Source of the DNA: Rhizodiscina lignyota
Taxonomy: Eukaryota
Length of the DNA: 64,000 bases
Direction: 5' to 3'
Assembly: GCA_010015805.1 (NCBI GenBank)
Contig: ML978139.1
Coordinates: 248,001 to 312,000, forward strand
This document shows, piece by piece, positions 51,272-58,801 of the stretch (its first letter is position 1; each line of letters begins with the position of its first letter). Made by a program: the position numbers and the translations under genes. The notes under the pieces were generated by a model that had not been told where the DNA came from, ran no database searches, and worked only from the letters and a program-made list of their open reading frames with translations.

Positions 51272-53263
51272 TCAAATCAGTGTGAATGTCTCTTCATTCA
51301 CCTTTCCTTCCCTCATCAACGTTATTGCTTCTCCATGCATCATGTGGAGGTAGCACTCCCCAATCATCAGATACTTTGAGTCTCCCAAAGGTCTCAGAAT
51401 GAACGGGACTTTTGCGCCAAAGATAACGCAGCAAACGTCTCCCTCTTCCAGTATCCAGGGTCCAAGCCCGAAGTAGCCGGAGTCAGTTATAAAGAACCGT
51501 CTGTTGAGGCATTTCAGGGCAGCATTGCCTAGAAATACCTCCGGCCTCACAGAAGTGCTTTCGGGATTTGATGAATTGATATCATTGCGATAAGATCCAG
51601 CAATATAAGCATCAAAAGAATCACATATTGCATCAAACTCTGTGTCGCCAGGTTCCAGGACGAGAGACGAGACTGTGTGGCGAAAGATCCAGTCACCGAT
51701 CAGCGTAAATACTAAGGCTCTCTTTACGTCTGCAACTTCATTCGAGTATGGGATCGGTTTGCTTTGGACTTGTTTCAATACGTCGTGATAAAGATCGGAA
51801 ACTGAGTACCCTTCTTTTCCCTTCGTTGTTTCAATGCGGTCCATATCTCCATAAGTGAAGAAGTTTGTTAAATCATCGAGTTGAGGCCTCCCCGTTTGCA
51901 CATGATCGAGTAGCACACCTCTAACAATAAGCTGTGTGCCATTCACCACGGTCAATTCGGGATGACGACCGTCAGATGCTTCAAAGCCAGCATGGAGGAT
52001 CTGCACTTTGTAAGACGGAGCCACGTCCCAGCGCGGACACCAGGAGGGGAACCTATCCTCTTCTAGATATTCTGGCCTGGTGGAATGTTCGAGTAAGGAT
52101 AATATGTCCAAGTCGAATTTTTGGTTGATCCAGGCTGCTACAAGGTCGATATACACAGTTGGAGCGGTTCGAGCATAATCAGGATCTATGCTGAAGTCCA
52201 ACAGTGGGTGATTTAAGAAGGCATATACTCTATCTCTTGCGTCGGATGACTTCAGCTCTCTAGATATTTGCAGGCACTGTATGAACTTTCTGGATCCCCA
52301 CAATCTGCCGTCGGAATCTCGCAGGCCACGGCCATCCAAATCGTATGAAACCCAAAGGTCGAATGTCCGGTCAAAGGAGAGCTGGTATTTATATGTTGTC
52401 AAAGCGCGCCCGCGATGGAATAGCCATTTGAAAACAGTCATCAGACTCCCCCAGTCTACTTCGGTGTTGCCGTAGAAGATTGTGGCTTGCCTGGCCAGAC
52501 CAACCTCTTGCCAGACCCAAGCCCGCCTGAACCATTCTTGTAGCGTGAGCTGAGAAAGAGCTTTCCAATTTAGATGATCGAGCGCTGCCATATCAGCGTC
52601 TGAGATGTGTGGAAGAGCGAACCATTCGCCATATCTTTCGAGCAATTCATTCACGTGTTGATGTAGACTATCTATAGCCTCCGCCGCTCCGCGAACTGTA
52701 TCTTCAGAATCATCCCCGAAAGAGATAAGTACTCTCTGTGCGATTTTGTAAATTTTACCCATGTTAGCGACTTGATGCCCTCGCTCTTTGACGTTCGATT
52801 GATCAATACGAATCGCATCACACCAGAGTATCTTATTCTCCGAGGAATCTCGTACTCGGCGCAGAGCCCATTCTAAATTCTTGGTGATTTGTAGCGGATG
52901 TCCGTTGATGTGAATCTTTTCACAAACATTCGGGTCTCCCCAGACGTAGGAGATGGCTTCATATCTCGGGTGTCGGCCGAGCCTTTCCAAGAAAAGTTCG
53001 CACTGAATCGGATCTTCCTCTGACCCATGGAGGAGTCGCAGAAGACGAAATGAGCCTTCATGGGGCAGAGAGTCGTATATCTCAGATTCCCTTGAACTTT
53101 CGTTGATGGGCTCCCCTCTCAGCATTGCTGCCTTCGCGACAGGCGACGCGCCAGCCGTTTCCATGAAAGATGCAAAATTAGATATCGGACCGTAACGACT
53201 GAGTGTCGTGATGCTTGAAGGCTTCATGTAAATATGAGATTCCTTGCTCAGACTTGCGGACAA
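51272..53263 (-). CDS. HET-domain heterokaryon incompatibility protein (HET-6-like); true ATG probably slightly internal
   Basis: FRLLRL, YEAISYVWG, LWCDAIRIDQ, ERGHQV..MGKIY..A, WFRRAWVWQE, SSDARDRVYA, PSWCPRW, RRFFITDSGYFGLGP, VPFILRP, IGECY. Confidence 0.92.
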   Translation of the reverse strand: MSASLSKESHIYMKPSSITTLSRYGPISNFASFMETAGASPVAKAAMLRGEPINESSRESEIYDSLPHEGSFRLLRLLHGSEEDPIQCELFLERLGRHPRYEAISYVWGDPNVCEKIHINGHPLQITKNLEWALRRVRDSSENKILWCDAIRIDQSNVKERGHQVANMGKIYKIAQRVLISFGDDSEDTVRGAAEAIDSLHQHVNELLERYGEWFALPHISDADMAALDHLNWKALSQLTLQEWFRRAWVWQEVGLARQATIFYGNTEVDWGSLMTVFKWLFHRGRALTTYKYQLSFDRTFDLWVSYDLDGRGLRDSDGRLWGSRKFIQCLQISRELKSSDARDRVYAFLNHPLLDFSIDPDYARTAPTVYIDLVAAWINQKFDLDILSLLEHSTRPEYLEEDRFPSWCPRWDVAPSYKVQILHAGFEASDGRHPELTVVNGTQLIVRGVLLDHVQTGRPQLDDLTNFFTYGDMDRIETTKGKEGYSVSDLYHDVLKQVQSKPIPYSNEVADVKRALVFTLIGDWIFRHTVSSLVLEPGDTEFDAICDSFDAYIAGSYRNDINSSNPESTSVRPEVFLGNAALKCLNRRFFITDSGYFGLGPWILEEGDVCCVIFGAKVPFILRPLGDSKYLMIGECYLHMMHGEAITLMREGKVNEETFTLI

Positions 53264-53789
53264 GGCTGTGAGTTTCCAATGAGTATCGTCGCGTTCGGTG
53301 GTGCTTCGTGAGAGTCGAAGGCTTCAAGCGAGATGAGTTAGATAAATGTCTCATATAGCTTGGCCATCAAAGTGGTTAAAGTCGACGTTGAATTCACGTG
53401 TCCTGTTGGTGTTAACATATATTCCGTGGGGAGTGCATAGCAAGGAAACTATGGAGTACAAAGGGCAAATATATAGCAGCTAAGCCTGAAATAGGAATAG
53501 CTCGTGTGCGTGGGGCGCCAAAGCGACAACGCTAATGAAATTGAAGTGCGTTATTAGCCAGTACATTGTAATTGGCAGGGATACCAGACAAACTACTGAA
53601 GCGGCTTCCAAAAGTCACTGACAATCTGTCTTCGCGGGGATAACTTTCGTAGTGCATCCTACGGGTTCGAACAGGCATCAACTGTAATTGTTACGGATCC
53701 TTCAGTCACATAAATGCATGAAATTATGGCAATCGTCGAAGAAAGACTTTGAATTGACTATCTACAAGTCACAGGTACTAGACTTGTCA

Positions 53790-54882
53790 GTCCTTCCCCA
53801 AAATTTAATGAGCGACTCCCACCACCAACTCGCATCGAACTCCATCGAGCCAGCCCCAGAAACGAGCTGTCTGCCGAAGCAAGACAGCATCCACAGATAG
53901 GGACCCCGGCCCACGATCCTAACGGAAGGGGATTCCTTGCAGCAGCCAAGCACAAACAACACATCCCATTCAACGCTCGTTATCAGTCAGCGGAACCGCC
54001 GCCGCTATTTTCCCCTGTAGCCCACATTGTGAGATACTGTCCGCGAACATCTTTCCCCCCACCACAGCCGGGTCCGAAGATACATGCGCAAGCAGGGTAG
54101 AAAGAAAGACGTGCGGCACAAAGGAAACAGCAAACGACGGTTGCGAATGAGCGATCATACCCAGTATGTCCGGCGGCACACTCCTGACGCCCAGCGGCTC
54201 TGGCCACAACATGACAGGCGGTCCGCGCGACTACAGGAGAAGACTCGACTGCAGCGGGACGGGCGGCGTGCGGATGAGCGAGAGCGGGTGAGTACCACGA
54301 GCGGCAGTGCGGGAAGAAAAGGGCAGGCGAGTACCGAGTCATACCAAGCGGATACCACAGAAACCCTCGTGTCAAACAATCAGATCCCCAGATTGAAGAA
54401 GAGGAAAGACATGAGGGGGGTATCAGGCAAACGCGCATATCAGATGCAGAAACAGCGACACATTTAATGACCACCTAATCAAGAAAATGAAAAGAAAGCA
54501 AAGCCAGAGGAAATGGGGATAGTATCTCGTTATCATATCGAGTTAAGCAACGAAAATTGAGAACTCCAAGTCGCTATGCAATGCAAAATCAGTTCAACAC
54601 CAGTTTCGTCGGAGAGGGTACGCAAGCGTGCCCTACAATCCGACGTCTCGTTATTTCATCCGGAGGCAAAGCCATCAACGGATGATGAGTGACCTCAGGG
54701 ACCAAGATTCGAACCTGAGCAATTACGACTCATCAAACAATCGCCTTTTCGCTCTTTAGATCCGATTTCCCGCAGGGTTGACTCAGACCTCACGCAGATG
54801 GGAGAGAAGGTCAGGTCTGTGGGAGGAGATCCTAAACATGTCTCACTCTCTCTGAAATTGGCTTTGTTAGAAGAGAGTGAAA
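53790..54882 (-). ncRNA. Candidate long structured RNA (identity unknown; telomerase-RNA-like layout or structured PRM1 3' UTR)
   Basis: Multiple nested helices that pair only on the minus strand via G-U pairs, cUUCGg hairpin at 53866-53888, Sm-like AAUUUUGG at the 3' end, no credible ORF. Confidence 0.45.
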
Positions 54883-54887
54883 GTATT

Positions 54888-57197
54888 TCATATCATGTTC
54901 GAACGATAATCGGCGAATGGATCACCGCCGCTTTTTTCGCTCACAATAGCACCGTGCATGCTTTTATGAGCCACATTGGCAGGCGGCGTGACAGTGCGGC
55001 TGTAGTTCCGCACGTCAATCGTACCCTTCTCGAGCGAGGCCTCCTCGCCAGAAGACGGGGGTACAGCGCGGGGGAAGGGGTGCGGATTCAAGGTATACGG
55101 CGCGTGAGGGTTGACATCGGAGGAAGCGTACTCATATGGTGGCGCGTCTGTCGCCTTTGGTTCATAGCTGCCGCCAAAGCCATTGTCGTGGGACTGGGGT
55201 AAGAATTCATTGCCACCTTCGCCGCGCATCTTATCGTGCTTGAGGAACAGATAAAGAGCGCGAACGAAGCCCATGAGTGCCACGAGGAGCCAGAAACAAA
55301 GGATGATGGTAGCAATGATGGCTTCTTGGCGGACAGCCGCCATGAGCAGGTGAACCAAATCGTCGACGGCTTCAGTAATCTCATCCGTGGTCGTGTCCTT
55401 TGGATCCGCGAGGAAGTTGTTGTCGGCTGTGCTGTTGGTGTGATCTACCAGGTTTTGGAGCGTGAAGGTGTTGTTTGGAAGCAGTGGGAAGTCGATGTGA
55501 GCATTGTCGTGCACCCACGTCAATCCCTGCTCAAAACTGGCAATCTTCAAGCCGATGAGACAATTGAAAACATCCTTAATCGGATCTGCGAGGATTGTCT
55601 TGCCAAAAGCATCGTCGAGCAGGGTGATCGTCTGGTTAACAAACTCATTGAGAGTATTGTTGACAGCAGTCGTGCTTGTGTTGACCCAGCCGAGCAAGTC
55701 CGTGTTAATCAGGTTGTTCTCCGTCAAGATCAGGTTGTTGGTACCATTTGCCCATTGCTGAGACGCGTTGTTGACGGTGTTAACAACCTTCTGGGAGAAA
55801 TCGCCAACCTGAGCAGCAAGATTGGGTGTCTCGTGCTTGATTGACGCAAGGAGAATGTATTGGCAAAGACATGCAAACAAACCGGCAAGTGCAAGAGCGA
55901 GCACAAAGAGAGCAGGGACTGATGTGCAGTATGCAACAGTCCAGCGGATCAGGAGCTGGTGGCGTTTTGTTGTTGCCTTGCTCGCCGCCCAGCTGCCAAC
56001 CTGCGATGTGTAAGGCCGAGAAGCCATGTAAACAGCGTCCATAGGATCGACGGCTTCTCTGCCAATGACTGCTGCTCGCTCTTGAAGACGTCGCCACCGC
56101 TGAATCTCCCACCAAGCCATAGGAATGCACACGAGAAATGCGGCGGTGAGAAGAACACCTAGAAAAACATTCCTGGCAATGTGGGAGATGTGGACAAGAT
56201 CGTCAAAGAAGTCGTTGATGCCATTATTGTCGGAGCAGAAAGTGAGGCTCTCCTTCTGCGGTACCGGGAGGAGAGTGCCATCAAACTGGTAGGTTCCCAT
56301 TGAGTCGTTGATGAGCTTCTTGAGCTCCTCGAATGGGAGACGGATTACGTCGTCGACTGCACTCTTGACTTGATCGAAAGTGGGAATCGACGCGTTCAGT
56401 TGCTGGATCTTTTGGTTGATGTCTGATGGCATTTGAATCGCTTTCAAGGCATTGACTTCTTTGGAGAGATTGATCTGAGGCGGCTTGCCAGAAACTGTTG
56501 GAATACCGGGAAGGACATCTAGGAATTTGTTGAGCGTATTTTGGAAGTCTGTGATGCCCGAGCCGATACCGTTTTCGACGCTTGACAGTGACTTGTTCAT
56601 AGCATCCGAAAATTCTTGAACAAGGTCCAGAGCCAAGTGCGCGCCACCACCTGCTGCGAGAGTGATCAGGCAGAGATATGTGTTTGTCATCATACCGATA
56701 ACAAAGACGACGATTTCTTCAACGCCCGTCACACTCATAGTGACCATTTGCATGAGTCCATTGACAGCATGTGTAACGCCCTCTGCAGTGAGCTTGTTGA
56801 CACCTTGCGACATGTAATGAGGCATGGATGCCATGGTGCTTCCGGCATCTTCGACACTGGTGCATGCCGAGAGTGCTTCTTTTCGAGCAGAAGCGATTCC
56901 GTTGTTCAAGCTGCCGACAGCTAGGAGAGTCCGCACGAGTACAAGAAGAAGGAGAATGGTCCATCGATTGATCCAAACTTGCGAGAGTCTAGCTCGAAGG
57001 CCGAGGTATGGTGTGAGGTATGGTGCTTGATTAGGTGGAGGTCGTGACGCATTCTGAAAGGCGTAGTAGTCTCGCATCTCATGGTCGCCAGCGGAAAGAG
57101 ATGGAGGTGCAGCTGGAAAGGGTTGCTGCCGGGTATCTGTGAACGACATGTCTGAGGAGCGGTGTCGAAACCGCTGAAGCCTATCCAGATAGCCCAT
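54888..57197 (-). CDS. PRM1: Plasma membrane fusion protein Prm1
   Basis: TPYLGLRARLSQVWINRWTILLLLVL, ACTSVE..GS.MASMPHY, TYLCL, FNCLIGLK, GLTWVHDNAHIDFP. Confidence 0.93.
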   Translation of the reverse strand: MGYLDRLQRFRHRSSDMSFTDTRQQPFPAAPPSLSAGDHEMRDYYAFQNASRPPPNQAPYLTPYLGLRARLSQVWINRWTILLLLVLVRTLLAVGSLNNGIASARKEALSACTSVEDAGSTMASMPHYMSQGVNKLTAEGVTHAVNGLMQMVTMSVTGVEEIVVFVIGMMTNTYLCLITLAAGGGAHLALDLVQEFSDAMNKSLSSVENGIGSGITDFQNTLNKFLDVLPGIPTVSGKPPQINLSKEVNALKAIQMPSDINQKIQQLNASIPTFDQVKSAVDDVIRLPFEELKKLINDSMGTYQFDGTLLPVPQKESLTFCSDNNGINDFFDDLVHISHIARNVFLGVLLTAAFLVCIPMAWWEIQRWRRLQERAAVIGREAVDPMDAVYMASRPYTSQVGSWAASKATTKRHQLLIRWTVAYCTSVPALFVLALALAGLFACLCQYILLASIKHETPNLAAQVGDFSQKVVNTVNNASQQWANGTNNLILTENNLINTDLLGWVNTSTTAVNNTLNEFVNQTITLLDDAFGKTILADPIKDVFNCLIGLKIASFEQGLTWVHDNAHIDFPLLPNNTFTLQNLVDHTNSTADNNFLADPKDTTTDEITEAVDDLVHLLMAAVRQEAIIATIILCFWLLVALMGFVRALYLFLKHDKMRGEGGNEFLPQSHDNGFGGSYEPKATDAPPYEYASSDVNPHAPYTLNPHPFPRAVPPSSGEEASLEKGTIDVRNYSRTVTPPANVAHKSMHGAIVSEKSGGDPFADYRSNMI

Positions 57198-58326
57198 TTA
57201 GTGAGTGCCAACCAGCAGCAACGGAGGAATTGAAGGGGTGGAAAGTGGAGGAGTTGCCGTAAGCTTGAGATGTTGGAAACGTCAAGCCTCGAAAGAGAGA
57301 AGTGGCGTTTAATTTGTGGTTGGGGTATTGTGGTGAAGAAAAATGAACAATAGAAATTAGATGGCTATTGACGGCAACGTGATATTAGAGCAACACAAAA
57401 TCACGGTGAATAAGACAGCGATCAACGCTACAAAGGAAACTCGTGATACATAAAAAGCAAAGGGTGAGCACGCTTAGAAAAGGGAAAAGAGGCAGGGCGG
57501 GAAAACAATGCAGTTAGACAAAGGCGGGTGTTGAAGATATTCATTCACGAAAAAGCCAAGAAGCACGTACCTGATCAGCGAACATGACCCATCGGGCGAC
57601 CGGGTGTCCTAGTGATTGACATTGAAACATTCGGTCGCTGGCTCCAAGCGTTTCGCGAGGCCTCCGCTCTCTCAGACCTGACTCTATTCTGAGGCTGGAG
57701 TGGCCGCGGCGCCACGATACGCGCCCACACGGCCGCGGAACGGGCAAACGGCGGCCACTCGTTTGAGAGTTCGATAGCTGGCCTACGGAAGACCCGAACT
57801 CAGTGGAGAACCAGTCGAGCTTCGCAGCGGCCCTGACAGAGGCATCATGAATGCGCTTCTGTGAGCAAACTGGGTTGTTTGGCCTCGACTGGCTCTCCAG
57901 GGCTTGCAAACTTTGCGACCGGACGAGCGCGTCGCACTGCAGCGGCTGTGAGGCTCAGGAGAGCTCAAACACGGCCGGCAGTGCAGGCGCACGTGGTGTT
58001 TAAAGTCGCAACAGCTTGGCAAGGGAACGGCTTCAGGTGTTCATCGTTGAAGTCGCTCGCATTGAGAAGGGATGGAGGCGTGGCGACCTTTTAAATGACG
58101 ATCTCGTCGCGGAGGCAGGGCAGCTGTGGCGTCAACGCCACCCCGCCGAGCTTATTTCCACTCCACGCCACACGTCGTTGCTCTCTGCAATTCAAGATAC
58201 TGCTACGTCTTCTTCTTCGGAGGAGTGTTTTGGCTCTTTTCGACACATTACAACACGCTATTTTGAGACCGTCTTTGTTGTTTCCTCAAAGTCTGAGATA
58301 GCTCAATTTCGGCTTCAAAGCAGCCT

Positions 58327-58377
58327 TTGATTGGCTACCGCCTAGCGCGTAGAGGCCGCAGCCCTACGGCCAATCAA
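58327..58377. promoter_or_regulatory. Inverted pair of CCAAT boxes in the PRM1/APS3 divergent intergenic region
   Basis: TTGATTGGC at 58327-58335 and its exact reverse complement GCCAATCAA at 58369-58377. Confidence 0.45.
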
Positions 58378-58801
58378 GCGGCCTTGGGCCGGCCAGGCGA
58401 AACACGCAAGATTACGTCAGGGCTCAAGCAAGTTTCACGGGTTTCCAGAAAATGCCATTGTCGCGAATCAGACGGAACGAATGCGATTGTCTTCCATGAC
58501 GACGGAGATCGATCCCCCTTCACGTGTTCGAATGCCAATGAGAGGCTGTTGCGATCGCAACAGGATGAAATTGGCCTTCGTGAGAAATATCTCCAACTTA
58601 CTATGCTTTGTATATGGCTCCAATGTCCTCTCGCTCCTCCGTAGGAAACGACTTGAAGGGCAGATAGAATGCCACGTGCTGTGGCTCAGCATCCCGCGCA
58701 CGTGAAGTCGCGATGTGCGGAATTTCCCCGCTTCAGCCACAACCACCAGTGACGGCACACTGAGTTCTGTTTACAGCTCCTCTTTGGAGTAAAATATCAC
58801 G

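Follow-up and report, generated by a model that had tools for sequence, protein, structure and literature searches.

What is the long, G-U-rich stem that can be drawn on the minus strand behind the PRM1 gene of Rhizodiscina lignyota: a fold that any sequence of this composition might offer, a substrate for RNA-processing enzymes, or one arm of an RNA with a function? The stem lies in a stretch of 64,000 nucleotides (GenBank assembly GCA_010015805.1, contig ML978139.1, positions 248,001 to 312,000 of the forward strand), here called the window, whose numbering is used throughout. A preliminary description had proposed four nested helices (H1 to H4, from the innermost outward) and a side hairpin with a UUCG loop between 53816 and 54315. 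Comparison with related loci indicates that the hairpin is probably part of a functional RNA rather than a chance fold. With moderate confidence, we assign the central hairpin and the UUCG side hairpin, as conserved domains, to a structured region that spans about 1.05 kb and probably belongs to the transcript of PRM1, a gene annotated as encoding a plasma membrane fusion protein; the central domain would act as a scaffold.

The region was delimited by comparison with 77 metagenome loci, all retrieved through PRM1, in which PRM1 identity is 43-62% over full-length matches and 66-70% in two short N-terminal fragments. When the spacer downstream of PRM1 was used as a blastn query, colinear same-strand blocks were found downstream of PRM1 in 33 of the 77 loci. 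A MAFFT alignment with 21 relatives is conserved from the stop codon to about 53840, with peaks of 0.66-0.90 identity per 15-nt bin, and the profile falls to background below about 53837. The conserved, block-wise structured non-coding region (53840..54887, minus strand) therefore starts after the PRM1 stop, and the arm of the preliminary description falls within its 3' half. Its most conserved part is block 1 (54666..54742, minus strand; consensus CGUAAUUGCUCAGGUUACGUACCUUGGUCC), which contains a small hairpin, reaches 79-95% identity in blastn (54742-54666) and is present in 27 of the 58 loci having at least 250 nt downstream. Three further blastn blocks, 54174-54139 (86-96% identity), 54092-54059 (about 88%) and 53991-53972 (89-100%), correspond in turn to B2, which flanks the central hairpin on its 5' side, to B3 at its apex and to B4, its 3' flank.

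B2 (GCCGGACAUACUGGGUAUGAUCGCUCAUUCGC; 54143..54174, minus strand) is nearly invariant, with blastn matches of 89-96% identity over 27-37 nt in 20/77 loci, and carries the 5' strands of both a short helix P0 and H2. At the apex B3 (AUGUAUCUUCGGACCC; 54070..54085, minus strand), a UUCG tetraloop (54078-54075) is closed by U-A and C-G pairs. B4 (CCGCUGACUGAUAACGAGCGU; 53973..53993, minus strand) is again nearly invariant; its GAGCG (53978-53974) can pair with CGCUC (54153-54149) to give P0, and the B4 pattern CTGAYYGRTAACRAGCG occurs in 25/81 loci, invariably in the PRM1 sense. Further downstream, block 14 (AAGGAAUCCCCUUCCGUUAGGAUCGUGGGCCGG; 53906..53938, minus strand) forms a conserved hairpin to which RNAalifold assigns 8 pairs, one of them U-A in 7 and C-G in 3 sequences.

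The helix just inside B2 and B4 stays paired although its strands, compared by eye, have unrelated sequences. The window has AACCGUCG/CGGCGGUU, and the relatives have CUCUCC/GGAGAG (L056), CUUUCC/GGAAAG (L026), CUGUCG/CGACAG (L067), CUGCCC/GGGCAG (L008), CCAUC/GAUGG (L012) and CUAUC/GAUAG (L010). In an alignment-free swap test over 17 distinct lineages, in which the 12 nt after B2 were paired with the 14 nt before B4, cognate strands gave -11.32 kcal/mol versus -6.40 for swapped ones, and 0 of 20,000 permutations reached the observed value. A repeat with strands taken from alignment columns gave the same picture (-9.69 versus -6.04; 0/20,000).

A six-helix structure (P0, Pa, Pb, Pc, Pd and Pe) was then written by hand on a 10-sequence MAFFT alignment. 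In this seed, 85.8% of cells are paired, against 41-49% with partners slid, and 9 pairs show two-sided change versus 3.3 in shuffles (0/500). The covariance model built from it, R1, was searched in the window, in 47 of the 77 PRM1 loci and in 4 viral loci. It has a single match in the 64 kb, the central domain at 53973..54173 (minus strand; 77.4 bits, E 5.3e-21), which contains the hairpin of the preliminary description between the flanks B2 and B4. It also matches 38 of the 47 PRM1 loci, each time on the PRM1 strand and 3' of the gene. Across the 37 sequences aligned to the model with E up to 1e-5, 87.0% of cells are paired (37-49% with partners slid), and 16 of the 29 pairs show two-sided changes. 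Cells changed on both sides number 91 versus a shuffled mean of 26.1 (0/500 shuffles), with a covariation score of 0.202 versus 0.083. The two-sided changes include all six pairs of Pa and 6 of the 8 pairs of Pb; P0 (CGCUC/GAGCG) is 91.9% paired with one-sided changes only, and Pe is 100% paired. G-U pairs are common in this alignment, for example 12/21 at one position.

In the window, Pa joins 54142-54137 with 53994-53999 and thus coincides with the first six pairs of H1, the central helix of the preliminary description. The apical loop is UUCG, UCCG or GCAA across 20 sequences and CUCG in L002, all of which we take to be stable tetraloop classes, and they read as such on the PRM1-sense strand only. 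The 5' arm measures 57 nt in the window, 35-48 nt in relatives and 66 nt in L030, and the 3' arm is branched in relatives. Judged by these comparisons, the long uninterrupted 25-bp G-U-rich form is a lineage-specific elaboration of this genome. RNAalifold produced a poor consensus from raw MAFFT alignments, whether these covered about 600 nt or the short-form domain, because the variable arms were misaligned, and a whole-arm swap test had little power because the arms share a pyrimidine/purine composition.

How does the proposed arm fold in the window itself? All strings quoted in the preliminary description are present where it placed them on the minus strand. H1 (54142-54117 with 54019-53994) has its 25 pairs, of which 10 are G-C, 8 A-U and 7 G-U, with a duplex energy of -30.8 kcal/mol. 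A partition-function fold of 531 nt (54330-53800, minus strand) gives H1 a mean pair probability of 0.80. Its 5' strand (54117..54142, minus strand) begins with the six bases of Pa (54142-54137), and its 3' strand (53994..54019, minus strand) combines Pa with the extension specific to this genome. H1 extends inward to a 149-nt hairpin (54142-53994) of 59 pairs, including 15 G-U. In the minimum free energy structure of this hairpin, a pyrimidine-rich inner 5' strand (CCGCACGUCUUUCUUUCUACCC; 54095..54116, minus strand) pairs with a 3' strand (GGUGGGGGGAAAGAUGUUCGCGG; 54041..54063, minus strand), and this inner helix is the counterpart of Pb in relatives (CUCCCUUCC/GGAAGGAG). The side hairpin, GCUGUCUUGC-UUCG-GCAGACAGC (53866..53888, minus strand; z -2.59), is likewise favored, with a mean pair probability of 0.91 in the 531-nt fold.

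The enclosing helices fared differently. In the same partition function, H2 has a probability of 0.01, H3 of 0.09 and H4 of 0.12. The 3' strand of H2, GAAUGGG (53965..53971, minus strand), belongs to a helix that competes with P0 for 54151-54149. The 5' strands of H3 (54243..54252, minus strand) and H4 (54296..54315, minus strand) have pairings unsupported by relatives. At the place of the H2 3' strand, relatives carry GAGUGAG, GAGAGAG or GACAUAG, which by eye pair with the tail of B2 in some (CUCACUC/GAGUGAG in L067) and not in others. The H2 swap test is uninformative, since the 5' strand is invariant and the 3' segment included an insert carried by relatives. The swap signal of H3 is due to the window (-19.3) and to L008, with an aligned 5' segment of only 6 nt in 11 of 13 relatives, and the H4 test gave no support (2872 of 20,000 permutations, n=10). 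In the loci compared, the outer helices H3 and H4 thus appear to lie outside the conserved fold. The side hairpin, by contrast, is kept at the homologous place: its stem reads GAUCCCG.../...CGGGAC in relatives and GCUGUCU/AGACAGC in the window, and its apex, GCUUCGGC, is often identical in relatives.

The preliminary description is therefore partly confirmed. Its central helix and side hairpin stand: relatives preserve the base of H1, the apex and the side hairpin despite differing sequences. Its choice of the minus strand is also borne out by tetraloops that occur in the PRM1 sense only, by frequent G-U pairs and by a weaker plus-strand hairpin. What falls is the energetic argument that four nested helices would be unlikely by chance. 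The 531-nt arm folds at -201.5 kcal/mol against a dinucleotide-shuffle mean of -204.8 (z +0.47; 65 of 100 shuffles at least as stable), and H2 to H4 have the low probabilities given above. The 149-nt hairpin taken alone has a z of -4.16 on the minus strand, reached by 0/200 shuffles, and of only -1.86 on the plus strand. Its 5' half holds 52/74 pyrimidines and its 3' half 48/75 purines; as z remains about -4.1 when the arms are shuffled separately (0-1 of 500), this pyrimidine-then-purine layout does not explain its stability. Since a DNA inverted-repeat search (seed 7) missed the arms, the pairing relies on G-U pairs. When both strands of the 64 kb were scanned with RNALfold z-scores, the hairpin scored -3.59 and 71 loci were equal or better, 31 of these at least 120 nt long. 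Three block-wise dinucleotide shuffles of the window gave 62-70 such loci, 26-32 of them long. In a search of 64 kb, stability alone is therefore no better than chance.

The distribution of the domain was traced through its anchors and through R1. Strict B2 and B4 anchors are found together in 27 of the 44 loci with at least 1000 nt downstream. The domain is present in loci whose PRM1 is 92-97% identical to that of Parastagonospora nodorum, Epicoccum nigrum and Macrophomina phaseolina, and in loci with PRM1 87-89% identical to that of Glonium stellatum. Weaker R1 matches come from loci whose best named PRM1 is that of Endocarpon, Exophiala, Lasallia or Cryomyces, at 57-59%. Among the loci compared, the element is widespread in Dothideomycetes, and it probably reaches other fungal classes. 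The larger region is common to Dothideomycetes and further Pezizomycotina-like PRM1 loci.

The linkage to PRM1 raises the question of whether gene and region share a transcript. The region follows PRM1 immediately and on the same strand, and the arm is located 570-1070 nt past the PRM1 stop. The downstream neighbor varies among the relatives checked (L007 and L036), so that the RNA region is tied to PRM1 alone. One layout recurs in many contigs of 3.9-4.07 kb: about 450 nt precede PRM1, about 1.2 kb follow it, and the 5' and 3' end motifs are shared. One contig of 4036 nt (L058) is a circular permutation of 5' region, PRM1 and conserved region with a 123-nt terminal direct overlap, and the 3' and 5' ends brought together at its junction are those where other contigs terminate. 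Tandem copies, a circular molecule or an artefact of cDNA or assembly could each explain this contig. From the shared contig ends and the junction in L058, we infer that PRM1 and the region are parts of one RNA, the region being most simply a structured 3' untranslated region (UTR), and cotranscription with PRM1 as a long 3' UTR is most likely. As the features of a structured 3' UTR element would lead one to expect, the region follows the stop codon, lies on the coding strand, accompanies the same gene across species and shows compensatory pairing.

Several observations concern these contig ends in their own right. At least 15 contigs of about 4 kb (L010-L069) start 10-25 nt before the motif ..AGAGGUCGUGUUCCCUUGCGC.., which is about 450 nt 5' of the PRM1 start, and many end after ..CUGGAGRCCGUAG..AAAUUGA. 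A search of the window for the 5' end motif, allowing up to 3 mismatches, gave nothing; only GTTCCCTTGC is present, near 58025. A contig of 1297 nt (L073), which may be a chimera produced in assembly, contains four pieces of L010 in a different order, with the conserved region joined to the PRM1 start and 152 nt missing internally.

If the region acts within the PRM1 transcript, the central domain would serve as a scaffold in which freely drifting but paired helices fix the geometry of the invariant elements. The scaffold helices would be Pa, at the base of H1, then Pb and the apical series Pc-Pd-Pe; the elements held in place would be B2, B4 and, between them, the apex GGAUGUAUC-tetraloop-GACCC. 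A conserved partner, either a protein or an RNA, would recognize the B2/B4 internal loop and the apex, and such a partner would control the fate of the PRM1 transcript through its stability, translation or localization. The scaffold arm suggested in the preliminary description agrees with this proposal, as the stems of relatives change sequence yet stay paired, with loops and junctions nearly invariant, a pattern typical of a helix that positions conserved motifs inside a larger structured RNA.

Some findings weigh against a scaffold in the PRM1 transcript and temper our confidence in it. Transcription, transcript ends and in vivo strand are predictions from sequence comparison, and the proposed function is pure inference. 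Invariant blocks of about 30 nt are more typical of the RNA of a ribonucleoprotein (RNP) than of an ordinary UTR element. The thermodynamic stability of the hairpin is not above chance at the scale of the window. The model alignment was fitted to the structure, and the structure was derived from the seed, both of which inflate the paired share; the seed counts and the swap tests are free of model-fitting bias. In the window, a good fit to the model is limited to P0, Pa and the apex; Pb and Pc come out mostly in gaps or mismatches, and a longer continuous helix (54116-54095/54063-54041) takes their place. Finally, R1 had no match in 9 of the 47 loci, 7 of which have at least 1000 nt downstream; the element is accordingly either not universal or diverged past detection. 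The best named PRM1 matches of the long R1-negative loci are lichen-forming or Eurotiomycete taxa at 53-70% identity: six of the seven match Lasallia, Peltula or Exophiala best, and the seventh (L072) is without a named match.

The alternatives differ widely in how well they accommodate these data. A separate, stable trans-acting non-coding RNA, an RNP scaffold or guide of which the hairpin is one arm, is a possibility we hold tentatively; it would either be released from the 3' UTR by cleavage or have a promoter of its own within the terminal part of PRM1. Blocks nearly invariant over 27-45 nt beside proteins of about 50% identity, a multi-domain architecture of about 1 kb with strong covariation, and the Sm-site-like AUUUUUGG that relatives carry in mid-region would all suit such an RNA. 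A precedent for its release exists in the telomerase RNA of Ustilago maydis, which is reported to be processed from an mRNA 3' UTR (PMC9564094). Set against this, PRM1 and the region stand together in single contigs that share their ends, the conserved sequence begins within about 40 nt of the stop and so leaves no promoter space outside the coding sequence, and no Rfam family matches; free-standing copies could not appear in a set of loci all retrieved through PRM1. A related proposal, also to be viewed as tentative, is that the region represents a new multi-domain class of long non-coding RNA or RNP scaffold in Pezizomycotina, physically coupled to PRM1, which may be released from the transcript in the manner of the Ustilago telomerase RNA and whose invariant blocks of 27-45 nt would pair with or bind a conserved cellular partner. 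The hairpin as a precursor of microRNA-like small RNAs, or as a double-stranded Dicer or editing substrate as the preliminary description had offered, is very unlikely. Being imperfect, about 59 pairs long with 15 G-U, and specific to one strand, the hairpin has the appearance of such a precursor, but the stems are variable and the loops conserved, the reverse of what microRNA-like precursors show, and the 3' arm is branched in relatives.

Splice-site consensus motifs comprise an invariant GU, a branch point and a YAG, and the interval from B2 to B4 could be viewed as a spliceosomal intron in the 3' UTR with these signals: a 5' splice site GG|GUAUGA in B2, and a branch point CUGAY followed by AG in B4. 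The long stem would juxtapose the splice sites, and splicing past the stop would expose the mRNA to nonsense-mediated decay (NMD), which has been studied together with UTR introns in Neurospora (PMC7746235). GUAUGA and CUGAY are indeed present in the window and most relatives, with the stem between them. The GU, however, is not kept: GGAUAUGU stands there in one clade and GGGCAUGA (GCAUGA) in two sequences. A G or an A, and no pyrimidine, comes before the AG, and conservation reaches far past the splice signals. With the domain retained in 37/37 aligned sequences and no contig seen in which it is precisely removed, we regard the intron as improbable. A chance hairpin in neutral intergenic DNA, helped by successive pyrimidine-rich and purine-rich tracts, would explain why the 531-nt arm is no more stable than its shuffles and why shuffled windows are as rich in equally stable hairpins, and the composition of the two halves fits it. 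It would account neither for the conserved flanks and apex with compensatory changes in 37 sequences, nor for the swap tests, nor for a z that survives separate shuffling of the arms. Already contradicted by the swap test, the R1 search and the covariation counts, it is scarcely credible.

The gene itself deserves a brief description. The PRM1 open reading frame (ORF; 54888..57197, minus strand) has 769 codons and does not require an intron. Among its 1470 relatives, the top one is 99% identical and labeled by its source as a Rhizodiscina lignyota protein, and the named relatives are annotated as plasma membrane fusion protein PRM1; the source organism is a filamentous ascomycete and the window is fungal. 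The one sequencing run listed for this DNA yields a single contig, identical along the entire window, and is probably its source DNA. The C-terminus of the ORF is common to three relatives and absent from the deposited model. The deposited protein (P0002, 683 aa) is without the last approximately 77 codons, which are conserved in those three relatives, and ends with 11 residues translated from the conserved block 1 of the RNA region (54695-55137, minus strand). As this tail is read from block 1, the annotation implies an intron from about 55137 to 54729.

On the same strand, the next ORF (51272-53263, minus strand) encodes a HET (heterokaryon incompatibility) domain protein and is separated from PRM1 by a 1.6-kb spacer. 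Pfam gave no hit for the spacer ORFs of 163 aa and 127 aa, and no credible coding frame was found in the spacer; its six-frame pieces gave weak tblastn matches that are explained by the nucleotide blocks. A tRNA search of 53000-55200 returned none. Upstream of the gene, blastn of 58600-57150 against the PRM1 loci gave no matches. A strong local hairpin lies at 57902-58023, about 700 nt 5' of the PRM1 start, with RNALfold z of -5.2 on the minus and -4.3 on the plus strand; being strong on both strands, it looks like an inverted repeat at the DNA level. Within the RNA region, relatives show two further features. Between B4 and GAGUGAG they have an extra hairpin of about 100 nt (CCUCCCUCC ... GGAGG; for example L026:3582-3680), which the window lacks at 53972. 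About 450 nt past the PRM1 stop they have a conserved AUGUAUUUUUGGUUUAU, where the window has CAUUUCCUCUGGCUUUGC; we take AUGUAUUUUUGGUUUAU to resemble an Sm-binding site.

To our knowledge, few large RNA structures other than the classical RNAs have strong covariation behind them. The region described here retains its fold over about 1 kb, together with several invariant blocks, among fungi whose PRM1 proteins share about 50% identity. It has no match in Rfam, and a conserved structured RNA attached to PRM1 has apparently not been described so far. As a 3' UTR of PRM1, it would point to an unrecognized post-transcriptional control of cell fusion in filamentous fungi, including important plant pathogens; as a processed RNA, it would be a new class of fungal non-coding RNA. 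The case also illustrates that a hairpin no better than chance by energy can still mark a real element, and that the conserved region is larger than the element proposed at the outset.

Comparison with known RNA classes places the region more precisely. Rfam 15 gave no matches with E up to 1 for window positions 52500-55500, and none with E up to 0.1 in 12 related loci (56 kb). Among the small nucleolar RNAs (snoRNAs), the C/D type carries box C (RUGAUGA), box D (CUGA) and a terminal stem, and the H/ACA type follows the order hairpin-ANANNA-hairpin-ACA. Their models were searched via Rfam, and the boxes were inspected by eye: UGAUGA before block 1 in the window is UGACGA in most relatives, CUGA is CUAG, and an ACA in B4 is found in some relatives and not in the window. 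A virus-like replicon, an idea suggested by the circularly permuted contig, was rejected: the B2 pattern occurs in 4 viral contigs, about as often as estimated by chance, none of them has B4, and their R1 scores are 18-19 bits. Stems of yeast introns bring the 5' splice site and the branch point together, and the present stem resembles them in lying between GUAUGA and CUGAY motifs; it differs in that its GU varies, every contig retains the domain and conservation extends far beyond the splice signals. Fungal microRNA-like precursors are likewise long, imperfect, strand-specific hairpins with many G-U pairs. Unlike them, the domain has variable arms and invariant loops and flanks, is conserved across classes and forms part of a larger fold; a precursor would have a conserved arm and a variable loop and would yield discrete RNAs of 20-25 nt from its arms, and here the changes are concentrated in Pa and Pb, with apex and flanks invariant.

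The resemblance to telomerase RNA is closer. Telomerase RNAs of Pezizomycotina (Qi et al. 2013, PMC3592445) are also at least 1 kb long, with short conserved domains separated by variable helices, and are missed by Rfam-type searches. Their template covers about 1.5 telomere repeats (CCCUAA permutations) and is 9 nt in N. crassa; a three-way junction with a 4-bp P6.1 stem and a 5-nt NUNGN loop is a further hallmark. The telomerase RNA of Ustilago maydis is in addition reported to be carried in the 3' part of a protein-coding transcript (PMC9564094). The PRM1 region differs: neither the window nor 20 of 21 relatives have, in the PRM1 sense, 8-9 bases complementary to TTAGGG repeats, and for lack of a template this identity was rejected. 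A 9-mer template is absent from window positions 52000-58500, with scattered matches in 6/77 loci, and no 7- or 8-mer template was found on the sense strand in the window or in 20/21 relatives. A separate observation is that UAGGGUU(GG) recurs in the PRM1 sense in block 14, about 850-1040 nt past the stop (for example in L059, L064 and L042). On the opposite strand it reads as a template-like AACCCUA, with 9-mers in L059 and L064. As the window has GUGGGCCGG in its place, the motif is taken as a G-rich pairing strand and not as a template.

Full-text literature searches combining PRM1 with non-coding RNA terms, including Pezizomycotina, returned no relevant paper, and PRM1 is absent from the main texts of Li and Breaker 2017 (PMC5640933) and of Gao, Jones and Rivas 2021 (PMC8216456). 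The structures in the latter study nevertheless offer the nearest parallel. In its main text, 3' UTR structures of Pezizomycotina are reported for a thioredoxin, a RING-finger protein and a thioesterase; like the PRM1 region, they were found by covariation, are tied to one gene and follow the stop codon. They average 85-170 nt as given there, whereas the region behind PRM1 extends over about 1 kb and combines several domains with invariant blocks of 27-45 nt.

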